Source: Candidatus Heimdallarchaeota archaeon
Lineage (GTDB): Archaea; Asgardarchaeota; Heimdallarchaeia; Heimdallarchaeales; Heimdallarchaeaceae
Reading direction: 5' to 3'
NCBI GenBank assembly: GCA_019057815.1
Contig: JAHLWR010000011.1
Location: 1 to 64,000, forward strand
DNA length: 64,000 nucleotides
Under the pieces are notes generated by a model. The model saw only the letters and a list, made by a program, of their open reading frames with translations, ran no database searches and had not been told where the DNA came from. Position numbers and translations under genes: made by a program. Of the stretch, positions 46,783-57,734 are shown piece by piece. Numbering within the stretch: the stretch's first letter is position 1; every line of letters begins with the position of its first letter.

Positions 46783-46961
46783 GTCCCGAAAAATTGAATT
46801 GAAACGTATTTTCCAAATACAAGATTATTTAACGTTTCAACGACTAATACACGTAAACAGAAAATCGCCTCTACATTTTTAGTACTTCTCAGATAATATT
46901 GTCTCGGGACAAAAACCTTTTTATACCCAATCACGTAAACTATTTTGTCCCGAGACGAAAT
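46783..46961. promoter_or_regulatory. Inverted-repeat operators bracketing a TATA box
   Basis: gtctcgggacaaaa 46901-14 and ttttgtcccgagac 46943-56 are perfect inverted repeats around tttttata; partial site gtcccgaaaa at 46783; cacgtaaac occurs twice. Confidence 0.75.
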
Positions 46962-46987: not shown

Positions 46988-47506
46988 ATGAAAAAGCATG
47001 AAAAACTCAGAATAAATGCGAAAGAAGCCAAAAAACGTTCATTAGATTTAGGTTTAGTGATTGTTTACTTTGATCAAATTAAAGGACCAGTTATTCTAGT
47101 AAACCACTCCTCTTTGGATGAGCGTGAACTCTTTCATTTATCAGTTAATGGAACAAGTTCCATGATGAGTGGTGTGAATTATGGTCCAGAGGATACACAT
47201 CGTTTTCGAGGAATCTTTCCTGTCAATGACAGATCTTTTGCTTACTGCTTCGACTCACTCATAACTGTTGATCAAACAGAAAGGTGTTCTTATACACCAA
47301 TATTGCTATTTGTTGTTTTCCCATCTTCAGAGTTAAATTCTTTCGGATTGAATATTAAATCTGTTGAAATGCTTCTAACTAAGTACACTGTAAACAGAAT
47401 AGAACTTTCTCGATTCACTTCAAAATTTTGCGCTTCTGTATGTTTTTCAATTACGAAGGAATTCCAGAAACAGATTTCCGTACTGGGACAAAATTCAAAA
47501 CTATGA
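46988..47506 (+). CDS. uDENN/longin-like domain protein
   Basis: LVIVYFDQIKGPVIL (FD...GP motif); similar layout to N-terminus of 12104-12874. Confidence 0.55.
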   Translation: MKKHEKLRINAKEAKKRSLDLGLVIVYFDQIKGPVILVNHSSLDERELFHLSVNGTSSMMSGVNYGPEDTHRFRGIFPVNDRSFAYCFDSLITVDQTERCSYTPILLFVVFPSSELNSFGLNIKSVEMLLTKYTVNRIELSRFTSKFCASVCFSITKEFQKQISVLGQNSKL

Positions 47507-47522
47507 AAGATAAGGTGACACA

Positions 47523-48263
47523 ATGAATGATGAACACGAAACAAAAGGTCCAGGGAGACCCCGAAAATATGCAACATCAGCAGAGCGAAAACGAGCTTAT
47601 AGGGAGAGAAAAAAGGAGAGACTCGCTCAAATGCAAAAAGGTGTTGCAAGACTAGAGAAGAAGGTGAGTAAATTGGGTATAACTAAAGAAAGATCTGATA
47701 AGTTGGATTCTCTACTAAATGAAATCGAGACACCAATGGCTAAATTTGCACCTTCTGAAATCGCAGAAATGGAAAATGATGAACTCTTGGAATTGCGAGA
47801 CATCTTGAGACACTGGTTGCAGGATCATAGAGGGCTTGGAGGAATAGTGACTCAATTGAGCAATGCTATAATTCCAAGAGCGTATGCTTCCTTTGATCAA
47901 TTGGAGTTATTTGGTCCAAGACAAGAAGAAGAAGAAGGAGAGGTAAAATACATTCCCTCGATGGTCGAAACAGTGATAGACAAAAAACGTCAAAATGCAA
48001 GAGCATATTACTTTTCATCATCAAGTAACAGATATAGCAGTAGTAACCTTGCAGAACTATTCGAACAAATCACCTTGCTCTATCTTGTTGAAGCTGAGAT
48101 CGCTAAGAGACGAAGAGACAAAGTTGAAGATTTTGCTATCGTGCAGCTAGAGACTAGAATCAAGGAACTAGAATCACTGCTAGAGGATAGTGAAGAAGCT
48201 AAAACTGAACCTTACTATAGAGGGGGTGAATCAGGTGGAAAAAGAGGTGATATCAATGAGTAA
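47523..48263 (+). CDS. AT-hook + bZIP-like coiled-coil protein, paralog A
   Basis: GPGRPRK; AERKRAYRERKKERLAQMQKGVARLEKKV; second coiled coil LETRIKELESLL. Confidence 0.75.
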   Translation: MNDEHETKGPGRPRKYATSAERKRAYRERKKERLAQMQKGVARLEKKVSKLGITKERSDKLDSLLNEIETPMAKFAPSEIAEMENDELLELRDILRHWLQDHRGLGGIVTQLSNAIIPRAYASFDQLELFGPRQEEEEGEVKYIPSMVETVIDKKRQNARAYYFSSSSNRYSSSNLAELFEQITLLYLVEAEIAKRRRDKVEDFAIVQLETRIKELESLLEDSEEAKTEPYYRGGESGGKRGDINE

Positions 48264-49395
48264 GAAGAATTTAGAGTCAAAAGAAAATAAACTGAGAGGT
48301 AAACCAATCGTTCTTGAATTTGGTTCAGCATTTACAAGAATAGGATTTTCGAGTGAAGATGCACCTCGAATAGTTAAACCAACGATTGTAGGTTATAATG
48401 ATGTAGTATCAAAGAATGACAATCTTACATCGATTTTAACCGAAACTAACAAACAAGCGTTTGTTGGCATTGCAGCTATTGAGAAAAGGAAGGAACTCGA
48501 AATAGTATATCCAATTAAAAACAGAAAAATAAATGACATGCAAGCTCTTAAAGTTATGATCCAATACGCAATTGAGAGAGACTTATCAATTACACCCGAT
48601 TTGCATGCAGCAATCGTTATTCTTCCATATCCAATCAGTGAAGAGGAAAAAGAAGAAATTACTAAAATGCTTTTAGACGATCTAAATTTTCCTGGTGTAT
48701 ATGTTTCATCTAGTGAAAATATGCCCCTATACAGTATAGGAAGAACAACTGGTATAGTTGTTGATTCAGGATACGAAAAAACAGATATTATACCTATTTT
48801 AGATGGTAAAATCATCACTAAAGCTGTTAAAAGCTTAAACATAGGTGGATATCACGTTACAAACAAGCTTAGAGAATCTCTGAGAGAGCAAGATTTCACA
48901 TATACAGATGAGGAAGACAAATTCTTTGGAGCTGCAAGAAACATCAAAGAAAATCTATGCTATGTAGCTTTAAATGCGGATAAGGAAATAGAACTAGCTT
49001 CTAAAGTTTCAGGGATGAGAAAAATACACAAGCTTCCAAATGGGGAAAAATATATTGTTGAACTCCAACGTTTTTTGGCGACTGAGATCTTGTTTCAACC
49101 AGAGATGATTGATTTGAAAGAAAAACCATTGCATGAACAAATTATCGATTCGATTCAGTCTTGTGATACTAAAAACCAATCATCGTTGTGGTCTAATATT
49201 GTTATTGCAGGTGGAAATTCTATATTACCAGGATATCATGCTAGATTAAATCACGAACTAAAATCACTAGCACCTGAAAACGAAGATGTAAGAATATATT
49301 CTACACCATCAAACACTAGCTTTTCTTCATGGATAGGCGCAAGTATCCTTAGTTCTAGAATGGAGTTTAGTAAACATTGGATTACAAAAAAGTAA
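48256..49395 (+). CDS. Actin-family protein (divergent)
   Basis: IVLEFGS..TRIGF..ED.PR...PT.VG, YPIK, TGIVVDSG, IKE.LCYVA, LPNG, E.LFQP, IVIAGG, WIGASILS; SD GAGGTGA before ATG 48256. Confidence 0.95.
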   Translation: MSKKNLESKENKLRGKPIVLEFGSAFTRIGFSSEDAPRIVKPTIVGYNDVVSKNDNLTSILTETNKQAFVGIAAIEKRKELEIVYPIKNRKINDMQALKVMIQYAIERDLSITPDLHAAIVILPYPISEEEKEEITKMLLDDLNFPGVYVSSSENMPLYSIGRTTGIVVDSGYEKTDIIPILDGKIITKAVKSLNIGGYHVTNKLRESLREQDFTYTDEEDKFFGAARNIKENLCYVALNADKEIELASKVSGMRKIHKLPNGEKYIVELQRFLATEILFQPEMIDLKEKPLHEQIIDSIQSCDTKNQSSLWSNIVIAGGNSILPGYHARLNHELKSLAPENEDVRIYSTPSNTSFSSWIGASILSSRMEFSKHWITKK

Positions 49396-49409
49396 TGTCT
49401 AAAAATGTT

Positions 49410-49432
49410 CTTTTTTCTTTTTTTTCTTTTTC
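49410..49432 (+). terminator. T-rich archaeal terminator after actin-like gene
   Basis: ttttttcttttttttctttttc. Confidence 0.55.
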
Positions 49433-49650
49433 TCTTATACATTTATCGAAGTACTGCTCTCCTACATATGAGGTTCAAGGGACAGTAGGAGAACATTAAT
49501 TTCCAATAATACCTATACAATCAGATATATATTTTAAACATAAATGAAAAAGATTTTCTTAAGATTTGTAAAAAATCTGACTTTTTAGTTAATAATATAT
49601 AGAAAGAAAATTAATTTCTTTTGGCTTTACTTGGAAAAAAGCTATGTTTT

Positions 49651-52089
49651 TCAAACGGGTTCAGGAAGTGGATAAAAATCATATGATCCACTTGAACCAG
49701 CTATTTCATAGGATCCAACACCAATCCAGTCCACCCAATAGTTACCTTCTAGAGTAATAATGTCGTACCAGATGTTGTTGGTTCCTGCATCAAATGCTTG
49801 ACTATCACCATTCATATAATTATCTATGAAGTTATTATAGGATATTACATTGTTTGAAGAGTATTTATTAATTGAAAGAGCATACATTCTGCTATATAGG
49901 AAAGTGTTTCCTAATAAATTGCTATTAGATGAAAAATTCAGCTGTATCCCTGTTTCACAGTATAGCAATTGATTTTTCGAAATATTAGTTTTGAAACTAT
50001 CTTCTATTAACAAACCTACGAATGAACTATTTAGTATGCTATTGTCTTTTACAACCACATCTACGCAACCATATAGCATTGTTCCTACAACACTGAGTAG
50101 AATAGTATTATTAATAATTTCAATCGGTCCAAGCAGTTCTTCATACTTCTTAATTATCACTGAATTTTCAACTTTTGTTAACCAATAACTTGTATTGATG
50201 ACGATTCCAGAGTAAGTACTATTATAAATTAAGTTTTCAGAAACAGTAAGAAAAAAAGTAAAATAACAACGTATGCCACAACCATTATTATCTAAAGAAT
50301 TATACTTAATTGTCATAAATTTAGATTCTATTGAATGAATTCCAAAATTATTACAGTTGAAGATTTCATTTGTTGTTATATTAACTATCTCACAAAAAAT
50401 AACAAAAATCCCTTTTAAACAATTGAAAAAGTAGTTATCAGAAATAATGATTTGAGAACAAAATACCAAAGATAATCCATTAGAATTGATATTATTTAAA
50501 CTACAATTTGTTATGGTACAATTACAAGAATAATATAGAGCAATTCCGTCCTCAACACTCTCAATTTGCTGATTAAGTATTTTTATATCGGAACAATTAA
50601 AGAAAATTAGTTGACCATATTCATCTACAATTTCTTTATTTCTTACATTCTTGAAAAAACCTAAAGGTTTTTTGTTTACAGTATTATTGATAATTGTTGA
50701 GGTAGAAAATAGCAGCTCACTTTCATGACCAAAAAAACTAAGACCATTATTTATCAATTGGTTACTAATAAGGTTAAAGTTTGAGTTCAAATCAATTTTA
50801 ATCCCACTTCCATGATTATTAGAAACTACATTATCTATTACAGTTGCATTATCGAATCTCCAAAGTGAAATACCACTCCCATTATTTTTTTCAATTAAAT
50901 TATTTCTAATGTTTGTACAAGGGGATTCAATTGCACAAATTCCAAAACAATTTGAAGATATCATGTTATTTTCAATATTAGTTTTTTCAGAATCAAAAAT
51001 ACTAACCCCCTTATAAGTATTTGAAAGAGTGGAGTTTAGGATATCACAATTAGAACATGCTCTGAATTCAATAGCTGTGTAGCTATTATTGATCCTCTGA
51101 TTTACAATAGAAACATTAATACAATCAATTAGAAAAATTTGTCCATATTTATCAGAAAGCACTGAATTTTCGAGTTTAGTGAAGAATCCAAGTTTATACC
51201 CATTGATCCAATTATTATATACATTATAGTGTTCAAATCTACTATCAAAAAAATAATCAAGTTGAATACCTAAACCACAGAGAAGGTTATTAGAAATTGT
51301 TGTATTGGTTGAATCACGTATATATAATTTACCTTTATTATCACTATCTACAACATTTCCGTTTATAATAGAATTGGGTGACCATTCCATTGAAAGAAAG
51401 TATCGAGGGGAATCAACAAAAGTATTATTCTGAATTTCAACTTCTGCACTGAAACTAACACGAATATAGCTTTTACTAAATGAATTGTGAACAATCAAAG
51501 TAAAATCTGAACCCCTTAATTCAATTCCAATCATTAGTTCTCCAATTTTTTCCTCAAAAAAACAATTATTTTGTATTCTTACATTGTTTGAATCTTGGAC
51601 ATATATTCCCTGATATCCACAGTTATAGATTGAATTATTTGTGATATAGGCAGTATTTGGAGCTATATTTTTAATTGAAATACCAGTGGAACTAGCTTTT
51701 AATATACAATTTTGTATCACAAAATATGAAGCTATATCCATAATAAGAATGGCATCTCTTGCAGTTGTTGTAATATTAAAATACTCAATGATATAGGGAG
51801 AGTCTTTTGTACCTTTACCCTTGGATGTATAATTCTTGAAGTCAATTTCTCTTTTTATCACAATTGACTCAGTCGTATTTTCAAAGGATGGTTCAGTCAA
51901 ATCATCAGGATATGAATCGGATTGATCATTAATTAAGAAATAAATTCCTACTATACTTCCGCTAATAATAAATAAAGAAAAAAGTATGGATATCGACTTA
52001 AAAAAAGTTGAATTAATCTTTATTTGTTTCATAATATCACAATTGTGTATCACTTGTTTAGGTGTTGGAACACTTATAGGTATTTTCAT
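49651..52089 (-). CDS. Membrane-anchored parallel beta-helix (NosD/CASH) repeat protein
   Basis: N-terminal TM, GTKDSPYIIE, N.I.NN/GI repeats, EGNYW.DW. Confidence 0.85.
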   Translation of the reverse strand: MKIPISVPTPKQVIHNCDIMKQIKINSTFFKSISILFSLFIISGSIVGIYFLINDQSDSYPDDLTEPSFENTTESIVIKREIDFKNYTSKGKGTKDSPYIIEYFNITTTARDAILIMDIASYFVIQNCILKASSTGISIKNIAPNTAYITNNSIYNCGYQGIYVQDSNNVRIQNNCFFEEKIGELMIGIELRGSDFTLIVHNSFSKSYIRVSFSAEVEIQNNTFVDSPRYFLSMEWSPNSIINGNVVDSDNKGKLYIRDSTNTTISNNLLCGLGIQLDYFFDSRFEHYNVYNNWINGYKLGFFTKLENSVLSDKYGQIFLIDCINVSIVNQRINNSYTAIEFRACSNCDILNSTLSNTYKGVSIFDSEKTNIENNMISSNCFGICAIESPCTNIRNNLIEKNNGSGISLWRFDNATVIDNVVSNNHGSGIKIDLNSNFNLISNQLINNGLSFFGHESELLFSTSTIINNTVNKKPLGFFKNVRNKEIVDEYGQLIFFNCSDIKILNQQIESVEDGIALYYSCNCTITNCSLNNINSNGLSLVFCSQIIISDNYFFNCLKGIFVIFCEIVNITTNEIFNCNNFGIHSIESKFMTIKYNSLDNNGCGIRCYFTFFLTVSENLIYNSTYSGIVINTSYWLTKVENSVIIKKYEELLGPIEIINNTILLSVVGTMLYGCVDVVVKDNSILNSSFVGLLIEDSFKTNISKNQLLYCETGIQLNFSSNSNLLGNTFLYSRMYALSINKYSSNNVISYNNFIDNYMNGDSQAFDAGTNNIWYDIITLEGNYWVDWIGVGSYEIAGSSGSYDFYPLPEPV

Positions 52090-52300
52090 GTAGATAAGAC
52101 AACTGAATTATTCAAGAGGAAAAACGTTAATACTACTACTACTATGATTTCAGTAATTAACTTACTTTGTTCCGATAATTTGAATAACTGGCTTCTTTTA
52201 AGACGTTTATTTCAGCTTTAATATTGTTCCTTAAAAGAACATCTATTTTATACAATAAGTTTATATATACCTTTTAGTAAATGGTATGATTAGAGTATAG

Positions 52301-54043
52301 TTGAAGTTTCATAATCCGGTGAGAAATTTGAAGATAAAAGAAACCAAGACAAATAAAATCAAGAATAAATATTTGAAAAAACTCTCTTTAGAATTAATTA
52401 AAAGAGGTACTGCAAATGATCAAATAAAATCAATATTAGATGAAGTCTCGATTAGCATCGAAGACTATGTTTCAGAGTTTAAACCAAAAGATTTCAGTGA
52501 AATGATGGAAAAATTTGGTTCTCCTCAGAATTTCTGTGATAATAACTCAATTATTCGTTCACGTGAAGCATTAACAGGTCAAATAGTGTTTTTAGTACTG
52601 ACAACTCTTAGTCTTTTGGTAGTCCCTGTAATTGTGATAACAAGCATTTCGATTCGTATGGTACCTCATTCGCTTATTTTTGAGAGATCAGAGAAATTTT
52701 TTTTGGGAATAGAGGGAGCAAATAATGGTTATGGATTTTTGGGGATTATATTTGGTCTAAGTATTTACATATGGATGCTTTATCAATACTTCAAGGATAA
52801 ATTTTCACCTTACGATATAAGGGAGAATATTAAAATTATCATACTTTTATTATTCTGGTTTTTAGTGGTTTTCTACCTTTATCTAGTTATAAGGAATTAT
52901 ACCTTCTATCATGAAGTAATAGCTGATATGTGGAACCAAGATATGAAACTTATTGTTTTAGAAGGATTAATTAGATGGTTAGCTGCTGGAATTGTATTAC
53001 TTGTTATAACCATGCTTTATACTAACAAATACTATAGGTATTATCGCAAAAAGAATCGCAGAGAACAGAAAAAATTCCTAATAGACCAAGTGGGTGTATT
53101 GGTTATCGTTTTTGTTTTAACTAGTTTTATATCTCCTGGACCAAGTATTGGAGTATTAATTACTGCAATGGCAATTGGAACTATTTTAATAGGAAAAATT
53201 ACAGGAAAAACATGGATTTTAGGCATTCTCGCTTTGTTACTACATTTAGGAGCCTTAATAAATGACTTAGTTGCTATAGAAGATATAGTAAGCAATCGTT
53301 TTGATAGAACACGAATTATTTTTGGAATTAGAACGAGTAATACTGAAAACATCGTTTTTCCAGCTATCATAATATCATTGTGTCTTGTTATTATTTGGAC
53401 AATATTTTGTATTAGGGTTTTAAAGAGGGATAAGAGACAATTTTTACCCCGTTTCAACTTACAAAAAGGAAGGACAATGTTTGTTTCTATTTCTTTAGTC
53501 ACTTTGGCTCTTATTGCTGTTCTTGGTTCACAACCCCATTACACGTTAATTGCAGAGGATTATCATGTAGAAGTTTCAGAAACATATATTACAGCTGACC
53601 TATTTTACAAGATACCAGATAAAGGAAGATTATTCATATCATATTATACATCTATAGAAGACAGCGATCACAAACTAAGTGGTAGTTGGTTTCTTACTTG
53701 GAAGCTAGCTGGCGCCATTTTAACAACATTCAAAAGTGAAGGAAATTTCTCAAGTAAAACTGACCCTAGTTACTCAAATACAATATTCAATTACACTTTT
53801 TCAATTCACTACTTATCATTGAAAATAAATAATTCTGGAACTATTCATTATCAGTATAAGATTAGAATTGATAGTTTGACAGTTTTAATACCAGTTTTTC
53901 AAATTCAGTGGTCACCAATAGTACCATGGTTTAAAACTTGGAATGATGTTACCATATTCATTAGTACAATAGTACTCTTTTTCTTATCCTGGAATAAGAA
54001 GAGGAACATAATTTCACTGAACTCGAAAAAAGGAGATGCTTAA
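52301..54043 (+). CDS. HAAS-domain multi-TM membrane protein (PadR partner)
   Basis: YLKKL...EV...IED...FGSP N-terminus, about 9 TM; abuts PadR gene. Confidence 0.7.
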   Translation: MKFHNPVRNLKIKETKTNKIKNKYLKKLSLELIKRGTANDQIKSILDEVSISIEDYVSEFKPKDFSEMMEKFGSPQNFCDNNSIIRSREALTGQIVFLVLTTLSLLVVPVIVITSISIRMVPHSLIFERSEKFFLGIEGANNGYGFLGIIFGLSIYIWMLYQYFKDKFSPYDIRENIKIIILLLFWFLVVFYLYLVIRNYTFYHEVIADMWNQDMKLIVLEGLIRWLAAGIVLLVITMLYTNKYYRYYRKKNRREQKKFLIDQVGVLVIVFVLTSFISPGPSIGVLITAMAIGTILIGKITGKTWILGILALLLHLGALINDLVAIEDIVSNRFDRTRIIFGIRTSNTENIVFPAIIISLCLVIIWTIFCIRVLKRDKRQFLPRFNLQKGRTMFVSISLVTLALIAVLGSQPHYTLIAEDYHVEVSETYITADLFYKIPDKGRLFISYYTSIEDSDHKLSGSWFLTWKLAGAILTTFKSEGNFSSKTDPSYSNTIFNYTFSIHYLSLKINNSGTIHYQYKIRIDSLTVLIPVFQIQWSPIVPWFKTWNDVTIFISTIVLFFLSWNKKRNIISLNSKKGDA

Positions 54044-54412
54044 ATGCCAAGAGATGAGCATGAAGAAGAAGTCTTGTTGAAAAAATGGCGAGCGCAACTA
54101 TCTAGAGGGATCTTAGAATTCCTCGTGCTCATCCTCCTACAGAAAGAAAGACATGGTTGGGATATCTTGCAACTAGTTAGATCTTTATTACCTCCAACTG
54201 AACCCCCATTAGCAGATGGTACAATTTACAATATTCTAACTAGATTAAAAGAAAGAGAATTAGTATCGTCTAGAAGCAAAATCATAGAAGGAAGAATGAG
54301 AAGATATTATAAACTATCAAAAAAAGGTGAGGTATTATTAACTGAAATGATTAAAGATTGGAAGAGTGTGATAATTTCAATTTCTGAAGCTGAAGAAATA
54401 AGTAAAACATAA
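54044..54412 (+). CDS. PadR-family transcriptional regulator
   Basis: RGILE..VL..L, HGWDI, GTIY..L.RL, RRYY.LS..G. Confidence 0.92.
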   Translation: MPRDEHEEEVLLKKWRAQLSRGILEFLVLILLQKERHGWDILQLVRSLLPPTEPPLADGTIYNILTRLKERELVSSRSKIIEGRMRRYYKLSKKGEVLLTEMIKDWKSVIISISEAEEISKT

Positions 54413-54663
54413 AATTTTAGGAATAAGTGTACTTCTAATAATAATCAAAGAGTAAAAGAATGCTCTAAACTGCAGAAAAGAGCTAGTAAAAGACTACATT
54501 TGTGGGATATCATTCCAGAGTGAAGACGATATTACTTTACCTCATGAAGGTTTTTCAACTGATTTTCTATATCGTACTAAAGCCACCAACTTTGATGGCA
54601 TTAATAATTTCATTAGCACTTCTAACTCTTTTCCACAACACCATAAGCCAATTATAGAATATA

Positions 54664-54730
54664 GTAACGTTATGGTAATATTTATATATACTGAGGAGAA
54701 ATAATAACGTGACGAAATTAATTTCGTAAC
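54664..54730. promoter_or_regulatory. Palindromic operators bracketing a TATA box
   Basis: gtaacgttat 54664-73, TATA 54681-90, ataacgtgac 54704-13, 22-bp palindrome gtgacgaaattaatttcgtaac 54709-30 (1 mismatch). Confidence 0.75.
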
Positions 54731-54749
54731 CAACTAGTGTTGTGATAAT

Positions 54750-55649
54750 ATGACTGATAAGAAGAAGAAAGGACCTGGACGTCCCCGAAAACATGTTTCT
54801 TATGATGTGCCTAAAGACGAACTTGCTGCAGCTAGACAGAAAGCTTATCGTGCTCAGAAGAAAAAAAGAATTGTGGAAATCCAACGCAAGGTTGGACGAC
54901 TTGAACAGGAAGTAATAACTATGTCGAAAACTGATAAAAAAATATCGCCTGAAATGCAAGCAATACATGAAGATATTCAAGCTCCTTGGGTGAAATATAC
55001 AGAATCAGAGCTCATGGAAATGGATGATTCTCAGCTTGAACGAATAAGGGCTGTTTTAATAAATCGCTTAATGAATCCTTTTGGTAATCCGTTAACCCAA
55101 GCTTTAGAAAGGGTAATTATGCCCTCTGTTGATCGCGAATTTGATTCAAGAGGTTTAGACTTGAAGAAACCTCCCAAAGAAATAGCAGAAGAAGGGTTAT
55201 CTAAACCTGCAGAGGATGTGACACCAAAGACTGACATGCAAATAAGTCAGTATCTTGAGAGGCTTGAAGCTGAAGGTGTGGATATTTCATCTATTAAGGA
55301 TCATGTTGTTCCTTCATCAATGGAATATAGGAAAGAAGAATCACCTCTTCACTGGAAAAATGTAACAGTAGGGCACAGAATCCAGCCGCTATTTGATACT
55401 TTTCAACAGATGATTTTGCTGTATAATGTTGAAGCTGAATTATCTAGACGAAAACGAGAAATGGCATTGGATTCAGATGTTGAACAGCTCGAAAAACGTA
55501 TCGAAGAACTTGAGAAATCGCTTGTTGATGAAAGAACAAGAGAAGTAAAGAGAAGTTACGCAAGAAAGATGGAGGATTACGCAAGAAGAACGGAGAAAAA
55601 AGATATAATCAAGAAGTCTCCAAAAAAGAAGACTAAAGGTGGTGAATAA
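54750..55649 (+). CDS. AT-hook + bZIP-like coiled-coil protein, paralog B
   Basis: GPGRPRK; AARQKAYRAQKKKRIVEIQRKVGRLEQEV; F.Q..LLY.VEAE..RR.R...QLE.RI.ELE shared with paralog A. Confidence 0.75.
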   Translation: MTDKKKKGPGRPRKHVSYDVPKDELAAARQKAYRAQKKKRIVEIQRKVGRLEQEVITMSKTDKKISPEMQAIHEDIQAPWVKYTESELMEMDDSQLERIRAVLINRLMNPFGNPLTQALERVIMPSVDREFDSRGLDLKKPPKEIAEEGLSKPAEDVTPKTDMQISQYLERLEAEGVDISSIKDHVVPSSMEYRKEESPLHWKNVTVGHRIQPLFDTFQQMILLYNVEAELSRRKREMALDSDVEQLEKRIEELEKSLVDERTREVKRSYARKMEDYARRTEKKDIIKKSPKKKTKGGE

Positions 55650-55786
55650 ATGTCCGACGAAGTATACACCAAACCTATAGTCTTAGATAAACGGTACTGG
55701 CTTCACTAAAAACATTTTCGAAATTGTGGGAGACAAAGAAAGAATACCAAGAAATGGGTCCAAGTTCTGTATATAGGTGTATATAG
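55650..55786 (+). pseudogene. Internally deleted canonical Asgard actin gene
   Basis: MSDEVYTKPIVLD(+1 nt)NGTGFTKN fused to ASLKTFSKLWETKKEYQEMGPSSVYRCI-stop; T-rich terminator follows. Confidence 0.9.
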
Positions 55787-55838: not shown

Positions 55839-57734
55839 TTACTTCTTCTTCTTTCGCTTAATTCTTAATCCTACATACATTACAGGCACAGCAAATAGAA
55901 TGTAATTTAATTCTCCATGATATTCAGAGATTATTATGATTAATGGTTCTTCAAGTGGATAAGTATCATTAGATCTTGCTGCACCATCAATTGTGTAATT
56001 TCCTAATTCACTCCAGTCTGACCAATAATTTCCTTCTAGAGTAATTGTGTCGTACCAGATGTTGTTTGTTCCTTCATCATATGCTTGACTTGAAGTTCCA
56101 CCATTTTCAGTGAAAGTGTTATGGTGAATAACGTTATTTGCTGAAGCAGAGTCCACATACAAAGCGTAAGCATAATTTGCATGAAAAATATTGTATGTTA
56201 CGTTTGTATTAGTACAACTATAGAGTATTGTTCCAGTAGCAGAACTACCTCCGGTACCAAAAGCTATTGAATTATTGGTTATGATTCCATAAGAAGTACC
56301 TTGAAATCTGCTATTATACCATGAATTTCCAAACAGAGTGTTATTTATAACTTTAAAATCTGTAACACTGTTGAGCAAATATATTCCAAATTGGTTATTA
56401 CTAGCAAAATTATCCTTAATTATTATATCATTGCTGGAAATTGCATAAATTCCACCGTAGTTTCTATTGTTACTACATGTATTGTTCTGTATGAAAATCG
56501 AAGAAGAATGTGTAAAATAGATACTTCCATAGTTATTCGCATTAAAGTCATTATTAGTTATATTAATCGAATTACAATATCGAAAAATTAAAGCTCTACT
56601 TGTATCCATAATATGAACATTCGATATACTAATGTTTGAACAATAAGCCATGATGATTTGTCCATAGAAGTCTCCAGAGATAGTTGCATCAATAAGATCT
56701 CTGAAAAATCCTAAAGGTTTGTCATTCACCGTGTTATTTTCAACATTTAGTTCATCATACACTGCTAAATCTCCTGGTGCGGAAATATCAAAACCATCTT
56801 TTGTTAATGTGTTGTTGACAATTATTGTTCGTGCAGCTAGTTCGTTGTTAATCCCTTCCCATCTGTTATAGTATAATGTATTATTGATTATGGAATTATC
56901 TGCTCCCCCTTGCAAATAGATTCCTCTACGACTATTATCATGAATGTAATTGAAATTTACAGTTGTATCAACAGAATACTTGATGTAAATTCCGTAATAT
57001 CCATTGCTGTAACATTCATTATCAATTACCTTACAATTATCTGCATTATCAACATAAATACCATATTGTGTATTGCCCCAACACATATTTTCAATCAATG
57101 TAGTATTAGCTGATTTAGTCCATATCCCGTGTTGTGTGTTAGAGTAGAACTTGTTCAAACTGAAAATTGAATGTGCTGACCCTTCAACATAAACCCCATT
57201 AGCTTGATATGCACAAGTGTTGTTTGTTACAATGGTATATGGTGAAAATTCTAAGAAAATCCCATCGGAATTATCGTTGCAGATATTTTCTGTGATATTT
57301 ACATAAGTAGTATCGCTGATTCTAATTCCATGCCCACTACCAGTACAAGTATTATTGTAAATCGTTGCTGTACCATCAGCAACATTGTCTATACAAATAC
57401 CACTGCCAAAAGCTTCTAATGTACAATTACGAATGGTAAAATATTTTGTTGTACCAGTAATATATATCCCATAATATTCAGTAGTCTCAATGTCATAATT
57501 TTCAATTATGTATGGTGATTCTGGTTCTCCTGTCCCCGAAGAACTATTTCCTGCTAAATCGTCATCATTAGTTATGTAAAGACGTTCATCTGAAGACAGA
57601 TTTTTATTTGGATAAAGATTAGCGCTAGAATCTTCAGCGGATATCTCAGTCAGAACTAATGTAATCGACGCAGTGCTAAGAAGAATCAAAATAATAATTA
57701 AAACTTTTAGATTTTTTTTAGTAATGTTTCTCAT
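55839..57734 (-). CDS. Secreted parallel beta-helix (NosD/CASH) repeat protein, paralog of 49651-52089
   Basis: GTGEPESPYIIE, NNTVNDKPLGFF, SQAYDEGTNNIWYD.ITLEGNYW; C-terminal TM + KRKKKK. Confidence 0.85.
   Translation of the reverse strand: MRNITKKNLKVLIIILILLSTASITLVLTEISAEDSSANLYPNKNLSSDERLYITNDDDLAGNSSSGTGEPESPYIIENYDIETTEYYGIYITGTTKYFTIRNCTLEAFGSGICIDNVADGTATIYNNTCTGSGHGIRISDTTYVNITENICNDNSDGIFLEFSPYTIVTNNTCAYQANGVYVEGSAHSIFSLNKFYSNTQHGIWTKSANTTLIENMCWGNTQYGIYVDNADNCKVIDNECYSNGYYGIYIKYSVDTTVNFNYIHDNSRRGIYLQGGADNSIINNTLYYNRWEGINNELAARTIIVNNTLTKDGFDISAPGDLAVYDELNVENNTVNDKPLGFFRDLIDATISGDFYGQIIMAYCSNISISNVHIMDTSRALIFRYCNSINITNNDFNANNYGSIYFTHSSSIFIQNNTCSNNRNYGGIYAISSNDIIIKDNFASNNQFGIYLLNSVTDFKVINNTLFGNSWYNSRFQGTSYGIITNNSIAFGTGGSSATGTILYSCTNTNVTYNIFHANYAYALYVDSASANNVIHHNTFTENGGTSSQAYDEGTNNIWYDTITLEGNYWSDWSELGNYTIDGAARSNDTYPLEEPLIIIISEYHGELNYILFAVPVMYVGLRIKRKKKK

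Follow-up and report, generated by a model that had tools for sequence, protein, structure and literature searches.

Basic leucine zipper (bZIP) factors are considered an innovation of eukaryotes, and to our knowledge the regulators known from archaea rely on DNA-binding folds of the bacterial type. Archaeal regulators of the Lrp, TrmB and MDR1 types bind over the region of the transcription factor B recognition element (BRE) and TATA box and over the transcription start; we know of no described repressor with this mechanism that is not a helix-turn-helix, winged-helix or ribbon-helix-helix protein. Among systems with an actin-fold protein, ParR of the type II system ParMRC (ParR, parC, ParM) autoregulates at parC, which in plasmid R1 overlaps the promoter, and the crenactin 'arcade' cluster places an archaeal actin homolog beside coiled-coil partners, the arcadins, which are not known to us as site-specific DNA binders. 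Here we analyzed a stretch of 64,000 nucleotides (the window) from a Candidatus Heimdallarchaeota archaeon (GenBank assembly GCA_019057815.1, contig JAHLWR010000011.1, positions 1 to 64,000), which carries the genes of two related proteins, X1 and X2, the first of them in an operon with a divergent actin, A1. We consider it likely that X, as we call this protein family, acts as a bZIP-like dimer that autoregulates an operon with an accessory actin.

The locus resembles ParMRC in that an actin-fold protein and a predicted DNA binder share one operon, and in that replicon-unique sites flank the operon's own promoter, where the DNA binder would autoregulate. Unlike ParR, X is not a ribbon-helix-helix protein, and the gene order is reversed; unlike ParM, the filament protein is a true actin, the X-linked actins ('actin-2') being 81-84% identical to the housekeeping actin. 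The locus is moreover chromosomal, with two palindromes instead of iteron arrays. As with the archaeal repressors that act at the BRE, TATA box and start site, one candidate operator is placed immediately before the TATA box and the other across the expected start, and the regulator is the first gene of the regulated unit; unlike the described repressors of this kind, X is predicted to use a basic-helix/zipper module. The crenactin arcade likewise has an actin homolog next to genes of coiled-coil proteins, but it belongs to a different lineage and is not known to us to be related in sequence.

The X family and the palindromes at its promoters

A preliminary description of this DNA had noted two paralogous genes on the + strand, at 47523-48263 (X1, 246 residues) and 54750-55649 (X2, 299 residues, a long-form paralog). 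Both open reading frames (ORFs) exist, and their products are full-length paralogs with 31% identity over the whole length (E 4e-27). Each starts with ..GPGRPRK.. followed by a basic stretch and heptads, as described, and the AlphaFold2 model of X1 has a continuous helix at residues 19-69 and a long C-terminal helix at 173-228. The AlphaFold2 models of X are all-helical throughout, with an uninterrupted N-terminal helix and a very long C-terminal one; these elongated models returned only noise in Foldseek searches of the PDB and in a shape search of the ESM Atlas. X1 and X2 reached no family in Pfam, NCBIfam or PADLOC. PHROGs gave only weak matches to the N-terminus (E 4e-4 to 1e-2) in families without known function, on which we did not rely, and a tblastn search with the N-terminal 60 residues found nothing in phage and plasmid collections, a result for which low-complexity masking is possibly to blame.

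An exhaustive phmmer search with X1 matched 30 representative clusters, and a profile search extended the family to 102 clusters at 90% identity, all of them 'hypothetical'. Apart from three differently labelled bins, the named clusters are assigned to Heimdallarchaeota, Heimdallarchaeaceae, Hodarchaeales or Asgard. In a survey of 400 Asgard genomes, 36 contained X; they are confined to three families of one class, and two closed genomes of a neighbouring genus have none. X1 and X2 are members of an undescribed and unannotated family found in Heimdallarchaeia only. In another family of the class (f7), up to six stretches per genome match the X short form; some of these genes are clustered within a few kb, beside N-terminal-only fragments of 50-75 codons (G087:C13:12356-18930, locus L043; G085:C345:134-3689, locus L016).

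The family falls into two size classes, short forms of ~200 residues and long forms of ~300. All share GRPRKY-x-T-x-AERKKAYRERKK and the zipper, and have in common the further segments TPSE[IL]..M....L and, at the C-terminus, QQ..LLYL.EAE...R.R followed by LE.RI.ELE. The G, R, A, Y and K of the N-terminal motif are invariant. The features of an AT-hook core are present: its G and R are invariant and its P nearly so, R or K flanks it, and the candidate operators described below are flanked by TT and AAAA; Pfam AT_hook (PF02178) matched 6 of 39 members (best E 1.1e-3). The actin-linked X proteins carry a conserved insert (..MPSVD.EFD.R.., TPKT..EY..) that the short forms lack. Compared with the sister genome (G011), both genes are under purifying selection, with ratios of nonsynonymous to synonymous substitution rates (dN/dS) of 0.26 for X1 and 0.30 for X2. 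Only in the window genome does X2 carry, at residues 15-24, 8 extra residues (..VSYDVPKD..) that separate the AT-hook core from the basic helix; its dS relative to the sister genome reaches 0.38, between two and five times the values of the neighbouring genes.

The upstream regions of 29 X-family genes were aligned by eye and by script. In front of the operon orf172-X1-A1, a pair of 14-bp palindromes (core GTCYCGRGAC; no strand is assigned to such sites) brackets the TATA box TTTTTATA, which was recognized by the archaeal promoter consensus at 46918-46925 (+ strand). The candidate operator O1, TTGTCTCGGGACAA at 46899-46912, ends 5 bp upstream of the TATA box in the BRE position, and O2, TTGTCCCGAGACGA at 46945-46958, lies ~23 bp downstream of it over the expected transcription start. 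In archaeal promoters, sites over the BRE and over the start are typical for repression. In the 3.7 Mb genome the 12-mer YGTCYCGRGACR is confined to O1 and O2, one copy each, against 0.04 matches expected per window, and the core GTCYCGRGAC is likewise seen at these two places only; the site also stands upstream of all long-form relatives. In three genomes of the sister genus (g5) it stands solely in front of the X-actin operon, and it is absent from two closed genomes without X. The 9-mer CACGTAAAC is also duplicated in the promoter of the X1 operon (46850-46858 and 46932-46940); the second copy lies between the TATA box and O2, where the sister genome reads AGCGTAAAC.

Of 15 long-form promoters in the sister genus, 14 show the layout O1-TATA-O2 with an O1-O2 spacing of 46-47 bp, as does the X1 promoter, and the location of the TATA box amid the two operators is kept in 15 related promoters. 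These promoters contain 38 palindromic GT-N6-AC sites versus 2.2 in shuffled sequences. Short X forms have the same promoter architecture, without an actin. At X2, the TATA box TTTATATATA (54681-54690, + strand, assigned from the consensus) is preceded by O1', GTAACGTTAT at 54664-54673, a degenerate copy of the GTAACGTTAC type, and followed by O2', ATAACGTGAC at 54704-54727, which overlaps the 16-bp perfect palindrome ACGAAATTAATTTCGT and is a weaker assignment than O1 and O2. Each of these X2 operators is degenerate in one half-site; the X2 promoter of the sister genome has GTAACGTTAT and a perfect GTAACGTTAC around its TATA box.

The inner bases of the operators differ by subfamily and track position 5 of the basic region, counted from the residue aligned with the bZIP asparagine (position 1) in 35 members. 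Proteins with Lys at position 5 go with operators GTC..GAC, those with Gln with GTA..TAC (including X2, with its sites GTAACGTTAT/C), and those with Ser with GTG..CAC. Three promoters fetched later as a test fit this co-variation, one of the Gln type (GTATTAATAC) and two of the Lys type (GACTCGGGAC). The genome-unique palindromes on both sides of the TATA box, their conserved layout and their co-variation with the basic region agree well with the earlier prediction of a dimeric DNA binder that would autoregulate an actin operon.

Resemblance of the N-terminal module to bZIP factors

A profile of the N-terminal 58 positions was searched against 177,635 PDB sequences. The top matches were two Yap-type bZIPs, 7aw7 chain D (E 1.6e-4) and Pap1 (1gd2; 0.0088), followed by CREB, GCN4 and AP-1 among designed coiled coils. 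Pfam bZIP_1 (PF00170) matched 18 of 39 members and bZIP_2 (PF07716) 8 of 39, at the boundary between basic region and zipper (best E 1.6e-4); X1 and X2 themselves gave no Pfam bZIP match at E <= 0.1. The resemblance to Yap/Pap1 noted at the outset was thus reproduced by profile searches, at levels below the curated thresholds.

The likeness extends to several details. In the eukaryotic Yap/Pap1 factors, and by prediction in X, ..A-[YF]-R-x-R-K.. runs straight into the heptad zipper within one helix, and the first zipper leucine stands at the canonical distance, at position 19. Positions 19, 23 and 26 are L, I, V or M in 35/35 members, in the canonical bZIP register. Yap factors have Asn at position 1, as do 15 of the 35 members (43%; a further 10 have Asp and 3 Ser), so that the absence of the invariant bZIP asparagine, reported earlier, is true of X1 (Ser) and X2 (Ala) and not of the family as a whole. 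The co-varying position 5 aligns with the Yap-specific Gln, which some X subfamilies share and which contacts bases in the Pap1-DNA structure. Furthermore, the presumed targets of X, the candidate operators that co-vary with the basic region, are 10-bp palindromes centred on CG or ACGT; bZIP dimers bind short palindromes with abutting half-sites. Unlike bZIPs, X has an AT-hook core in front and a helical body of 150-250 residues with a second coiled coil behind, and its gene heads a prokaryotic operon that it apparently regulates itself.

Other observations weigh against equating the module with a bZIP. The Pfam bZIP matches remain below the curated cut-off (one printed score is 14.5 bits vs 27.6). 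The signature of the basic region, N-x2-A-A-x2-[CS]-R, is not found as such: position 4, Ala in bZIPs, is Arg in 34 of 35 members, position 8, Phe in Yap, is Tyr throughout, and the Arg at position 9 is kept in 25 of 35 only. The zipper is conserved over ~2.5 heptads only, and the long forms of the sister genus have an insert of 10-11 residues between the basic stretch and the zipper, which a rigid bZIP fork should not tolerate. On balance, X probably works like a bZIP, and its homology to eukaryotic bZIPs is suggestive but sub-threshold. Literature searches found no relevant report of a bZIP or an AT-hook in Asgard archaea and, within the literature searched, no basic-helix/zipper DNA-binding module described in archaea.

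The actins behind X1 and X2

The overlap between X1 and its downstream gene at 48256 was found as described: it comprises 8 nt, ATGAGTAA, and places the ATG of A1 (48256-49395, + strand, 379 residues) inside the last codons of X1. A1 matches Pfam Actin (PF00022) with 262.8 bits against a cut-off of 27 (E 5e-78), over profile positions 5-395 of 410. Its phosphate loops read EFGSA and DSGYEKTD, where canonical actins have DNGSG and DxGDG; other residues take the place of Gln137 and His161, and the protein lacks the last 14 residues at its C-terminus. The canonical nucleotide-binding and catalytic residues are thus not conserved. A1 is 38-39% identical to the housekeeping actin and forms a separate long branch, having diverged to a degree like that of actin-related proteins (Arps). 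The gene is under purifying selection (dN/dS 0.23 vs the sister genome). Together with its 96%-identical ortholog in the sister genome and a metagenomic relative, A1 makes up the third, very long actin branch of the tree. The overlap of an X1-like with an A1-like gene was also found on a metagenome contig. On this contig (L052:1-324) the pair is preceded by the 3' end of an actin gene of a different type, giving the arrangement actin - operators - X - actin.

Behind X2, the preliminary description had placed a canonical actin, coupled by TAA-ATG at 55647-55652, and had read the two X-actin pairs as a duplicated cassette. The motif is present, but what follows it is a remnant and not a gene, and the second cassette is hence not intact. 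Only 137 bases (55650-55786, + strand) separate X2 from a T-rich stretch and a convergent gene; they hold N- and C-terminal bits of an actin with ~1 kb missing, instead of an intact ORF of ~375 codons. Frame 1 reads MSDEVYTKPIVLD, ~13 codons of the actin N-terminus, and then stops. The second part corresponds to the last 31 actin codons in another frame, ending ..YRCI, and matches Pfam Actin positions 379-407. The sister genome has the same remnant (L011:3985-4120) without one extra A, so that its frame stays open over the first 21 actin codons, up to ..GTGFTKN, and is lost for the C-terminal part. In intact relatives of actin-2 the 11-mer TCACTAAAAAC occurs at both ends of the gene, read as F-T-K-N near the start and S-L-K-T near the end, and the junction of the remnant lies exactly inside this repeat (55703-55713). 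The remnant therefore results from a microhomology (slippage-type) deletion of ~1 kb between 11-nt direct repeats, older than the split between the window genome and its sister. An assembly artefact is rejected.

The N-terminal signature of the remnant, SDE..TKP.VLDNG, is that of the X-linked actins and not of the housekeeping actin, and its DNA is 78-89% identical to five of six X-linked genes (65% to the sixth) and 68% identical to the housekeeping gene, which identifies it as having once been an X-linked actin. By position, X2 is orthologous to the X genes that are linked to actin in the sister genus; there, in 10 genomes, a full-length actin follows the X2-type long form within a few tens of bases. 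In five further genomes of that genus the surroundings are alike (X, two small ORFs, DUF389), and the actin is missing. The genomes with an X-linked actin carry a second actin elsewhere. These housekeeping actins are almost invariant (96% identity across genera), and the copy of the window genome is on contig C38. We also considered that the actin had moved from X2 to contig C38. This was rejected, since genomes with X-linked actins have a separate housekeeping actin as well, and the remnant is thus a lost second paralog.

In the actin tree the X-linked actins form a clade of their own with 100% support and longer branches. In the X tree, the X1-type proteins and the long forms make up one clade (95%) nested among the short forms, inside which the long forms without actin are scattered; the short forms are monocistronic and never actin-linked. 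The linkage of X and actin therefore arose once and has persisted, as two types of cassette, across a deep divergence; the actin has been lost at least five times while X stayed, in this genus and at least four times more. The expectation that homologs are linked to actin elsewhere is thus borne out in the long-form subfamily, with intact actins in 10 genomes, but not in the short forms, and within the long forms it is tempered by the repeated losses.

Two observations on the other actins of these genomes may be added. The housekeeping actin of the window genome (L004:1483-2619, corresponding to G000 contig C38:239293-240429) has TTG as its start codon, and no ATG stands in frame ahead of the DNG loop; the same is true of most X-linked actins of the sister genus, and in some relatives this codon is ATG. 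The window genome has a third actin-fold gene (G000 contig C27:38500-39738, L006), which encodes ~490 residues with an N-terminal extension, is 29% identical to the housekeeping actin, and has orthologs of ~490-525 residues across the family.

Proposed autoregulation, its alternatives and the surrounding genes

In the mechanism that we propose, the N-terminal 50 residues of X comprise an AT-hook core (GRP) and a single predicted helix, which carries a basic stretch (..AERKKAYRERKK) ahead of a short zipper. A dimer of X would recognize the 10-bp palindromes, centred on CG and flanked by A/T, that lie to either side of its operon's TATA box, one over the BRE and the other over the transcription start, and its binding at O1/O2 would repress this operon. 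The second gene of a long-form operon is an accessory actin: A1 behind X1 and, formerly, actin-2 behind X2. The latter was a faster-evolving paralog of the housekeeping actin, and the slippage-type deletion destroyed it in this genus. Several results count against so simple a regulatory role. The co-variation of operator and basic region rests on few clades, which are not independent. Near-consensus operators are no commoner in the genome than a reversed control pattern, and none was found upstream of the housekeeping actin or of the Arp-like gene. X is nevertheless under purifying selection after the loss of its actin cargo. Because X is kept without this cargo and without further near-consensus sites, actin autoregulation cannot be its whole function: either weaker X targets exist, or the conserved middle and C-terminal parts act otherwise. 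For the long forms, with their specific insert, contact with actin would be an obvious candidate role.

One alternative is a ParMRC-like module, in which X would sit on the palindrome pair as on a centromere and the long-form insert or C-terminal tail would bind filaments of the co-encoded actin, so that a chromosomal locus is positioned or moved; in a variant, X would be an MRTF-like sensor of the actin state that feeds back on transcription. We regard such tethering as unlikely, while noting that it can coexist with autoregulation. It would account for the translational coupling of a predicted DNA binder with an actin in one operon, for a palindromic site that is genome-unique and overlaps the promoter as parC does, and for the conserved insert that the actin-linked X proteins share and the short forms lack; the selection on X where neither cargo nor other targets are detectable also hints at a function beyond transcription. 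On the other hand, the short forms share the promoter architecture without any actin, and actin-2 was lost at least five times while X stayed, so that X does not need actin-2. The locus is chromosomal and syntenic, not on a plasmid, it has two sites instead of an iteron array, and Pfam searches recognized no known actin-binding motif in X. That the N-terminal module is a true homolog of the Yap-type bZIPs and that the long forms are at the same time coupled to actin, physically or regulatorily, as tether or sensor, is a combination which we hold to be distinctly doubtful.

A very unlikely explanation, in our judgement, is that both the bZIP resemblance and the actin adjacency are incidental. 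X would then be some other coiled-coil protein, nucleoid-associated or structural, the palindromes would be bound by another regulator, and the actin neighbour would reflect inherited synteny among closely related genomes. The adjacency is indeed known from one genus and one sister genus and goes back to a single origin, that is, to one event without independent recurrence; the bZIP matches are marginal and stand among generic coiled-coil matches, and the fold searches gave nothing. However, in all subfamilies the palindromes go along with the X genes, even where the genomic context differs; they change together with the basic region and are absent from genomes without X, and an unrelated regulator does not predict this co-variation. 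Autoregulation by a bZIP-like dimer remains the reading that we prefer.

Between O2 and X1 the window genome contains orf172 (46988-47506, + strand), an orphan gene without a sequence homolog among 5.8 billion proteins. The gene is missing in the sister genome, whose corresponding promoter lies directly in front of X1; orf172 is therefore a recent insertion behind O2. Its language-model neighbours include Asgard hypotheticals and longin-type clusters of NPR2, folliculin and DENND11; taken as a lead only, they make a longin/uDENN-like fold possible. Each cassette is followed by a convergent gene (- strand) for a NosD/right-handed beta-helix surface protein, at 49651-52089 and 55839-57734; of the second gene only the 3' end is left in the sister genome. 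With 192 matched stretches, the family has undergone a huge expansion in this genome, and its adjacency to the X cassettes is therefore probably not meaningful. A segmental duplication of three genes that would include the beta-helix neighbours was rejected, as matches to the family far exceed 100 in this genome and the two neighbours share no more than ~29% identity. Just upstream of X2, at 52301-54412, a 580-residue multi-pass membrane protein and an abutting PadR-family regulator are encoded, a pair also kept in the sister genome.

Heimdallarchaeia are central to the debates on the origin of eukaryotes, and in them the members of the X family unite an AT-hook core with a basic helix-zipper in the bZIP register and come with predicted operators of their own. 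If the module is a true homolog of the Yap-type factors, bZIP DNA binding would have originated before eukaryotes. Two short DNA sites and one small protein make the question of homology or convergence testable at the bench. These archaea moreover keep extra actin paralogs in addition to a housekeeping actin that hardly varies, would regulate them separately and have discarded them repeatedly, and the locus thereby bears on the diversification of the actin family before eukaryotes.

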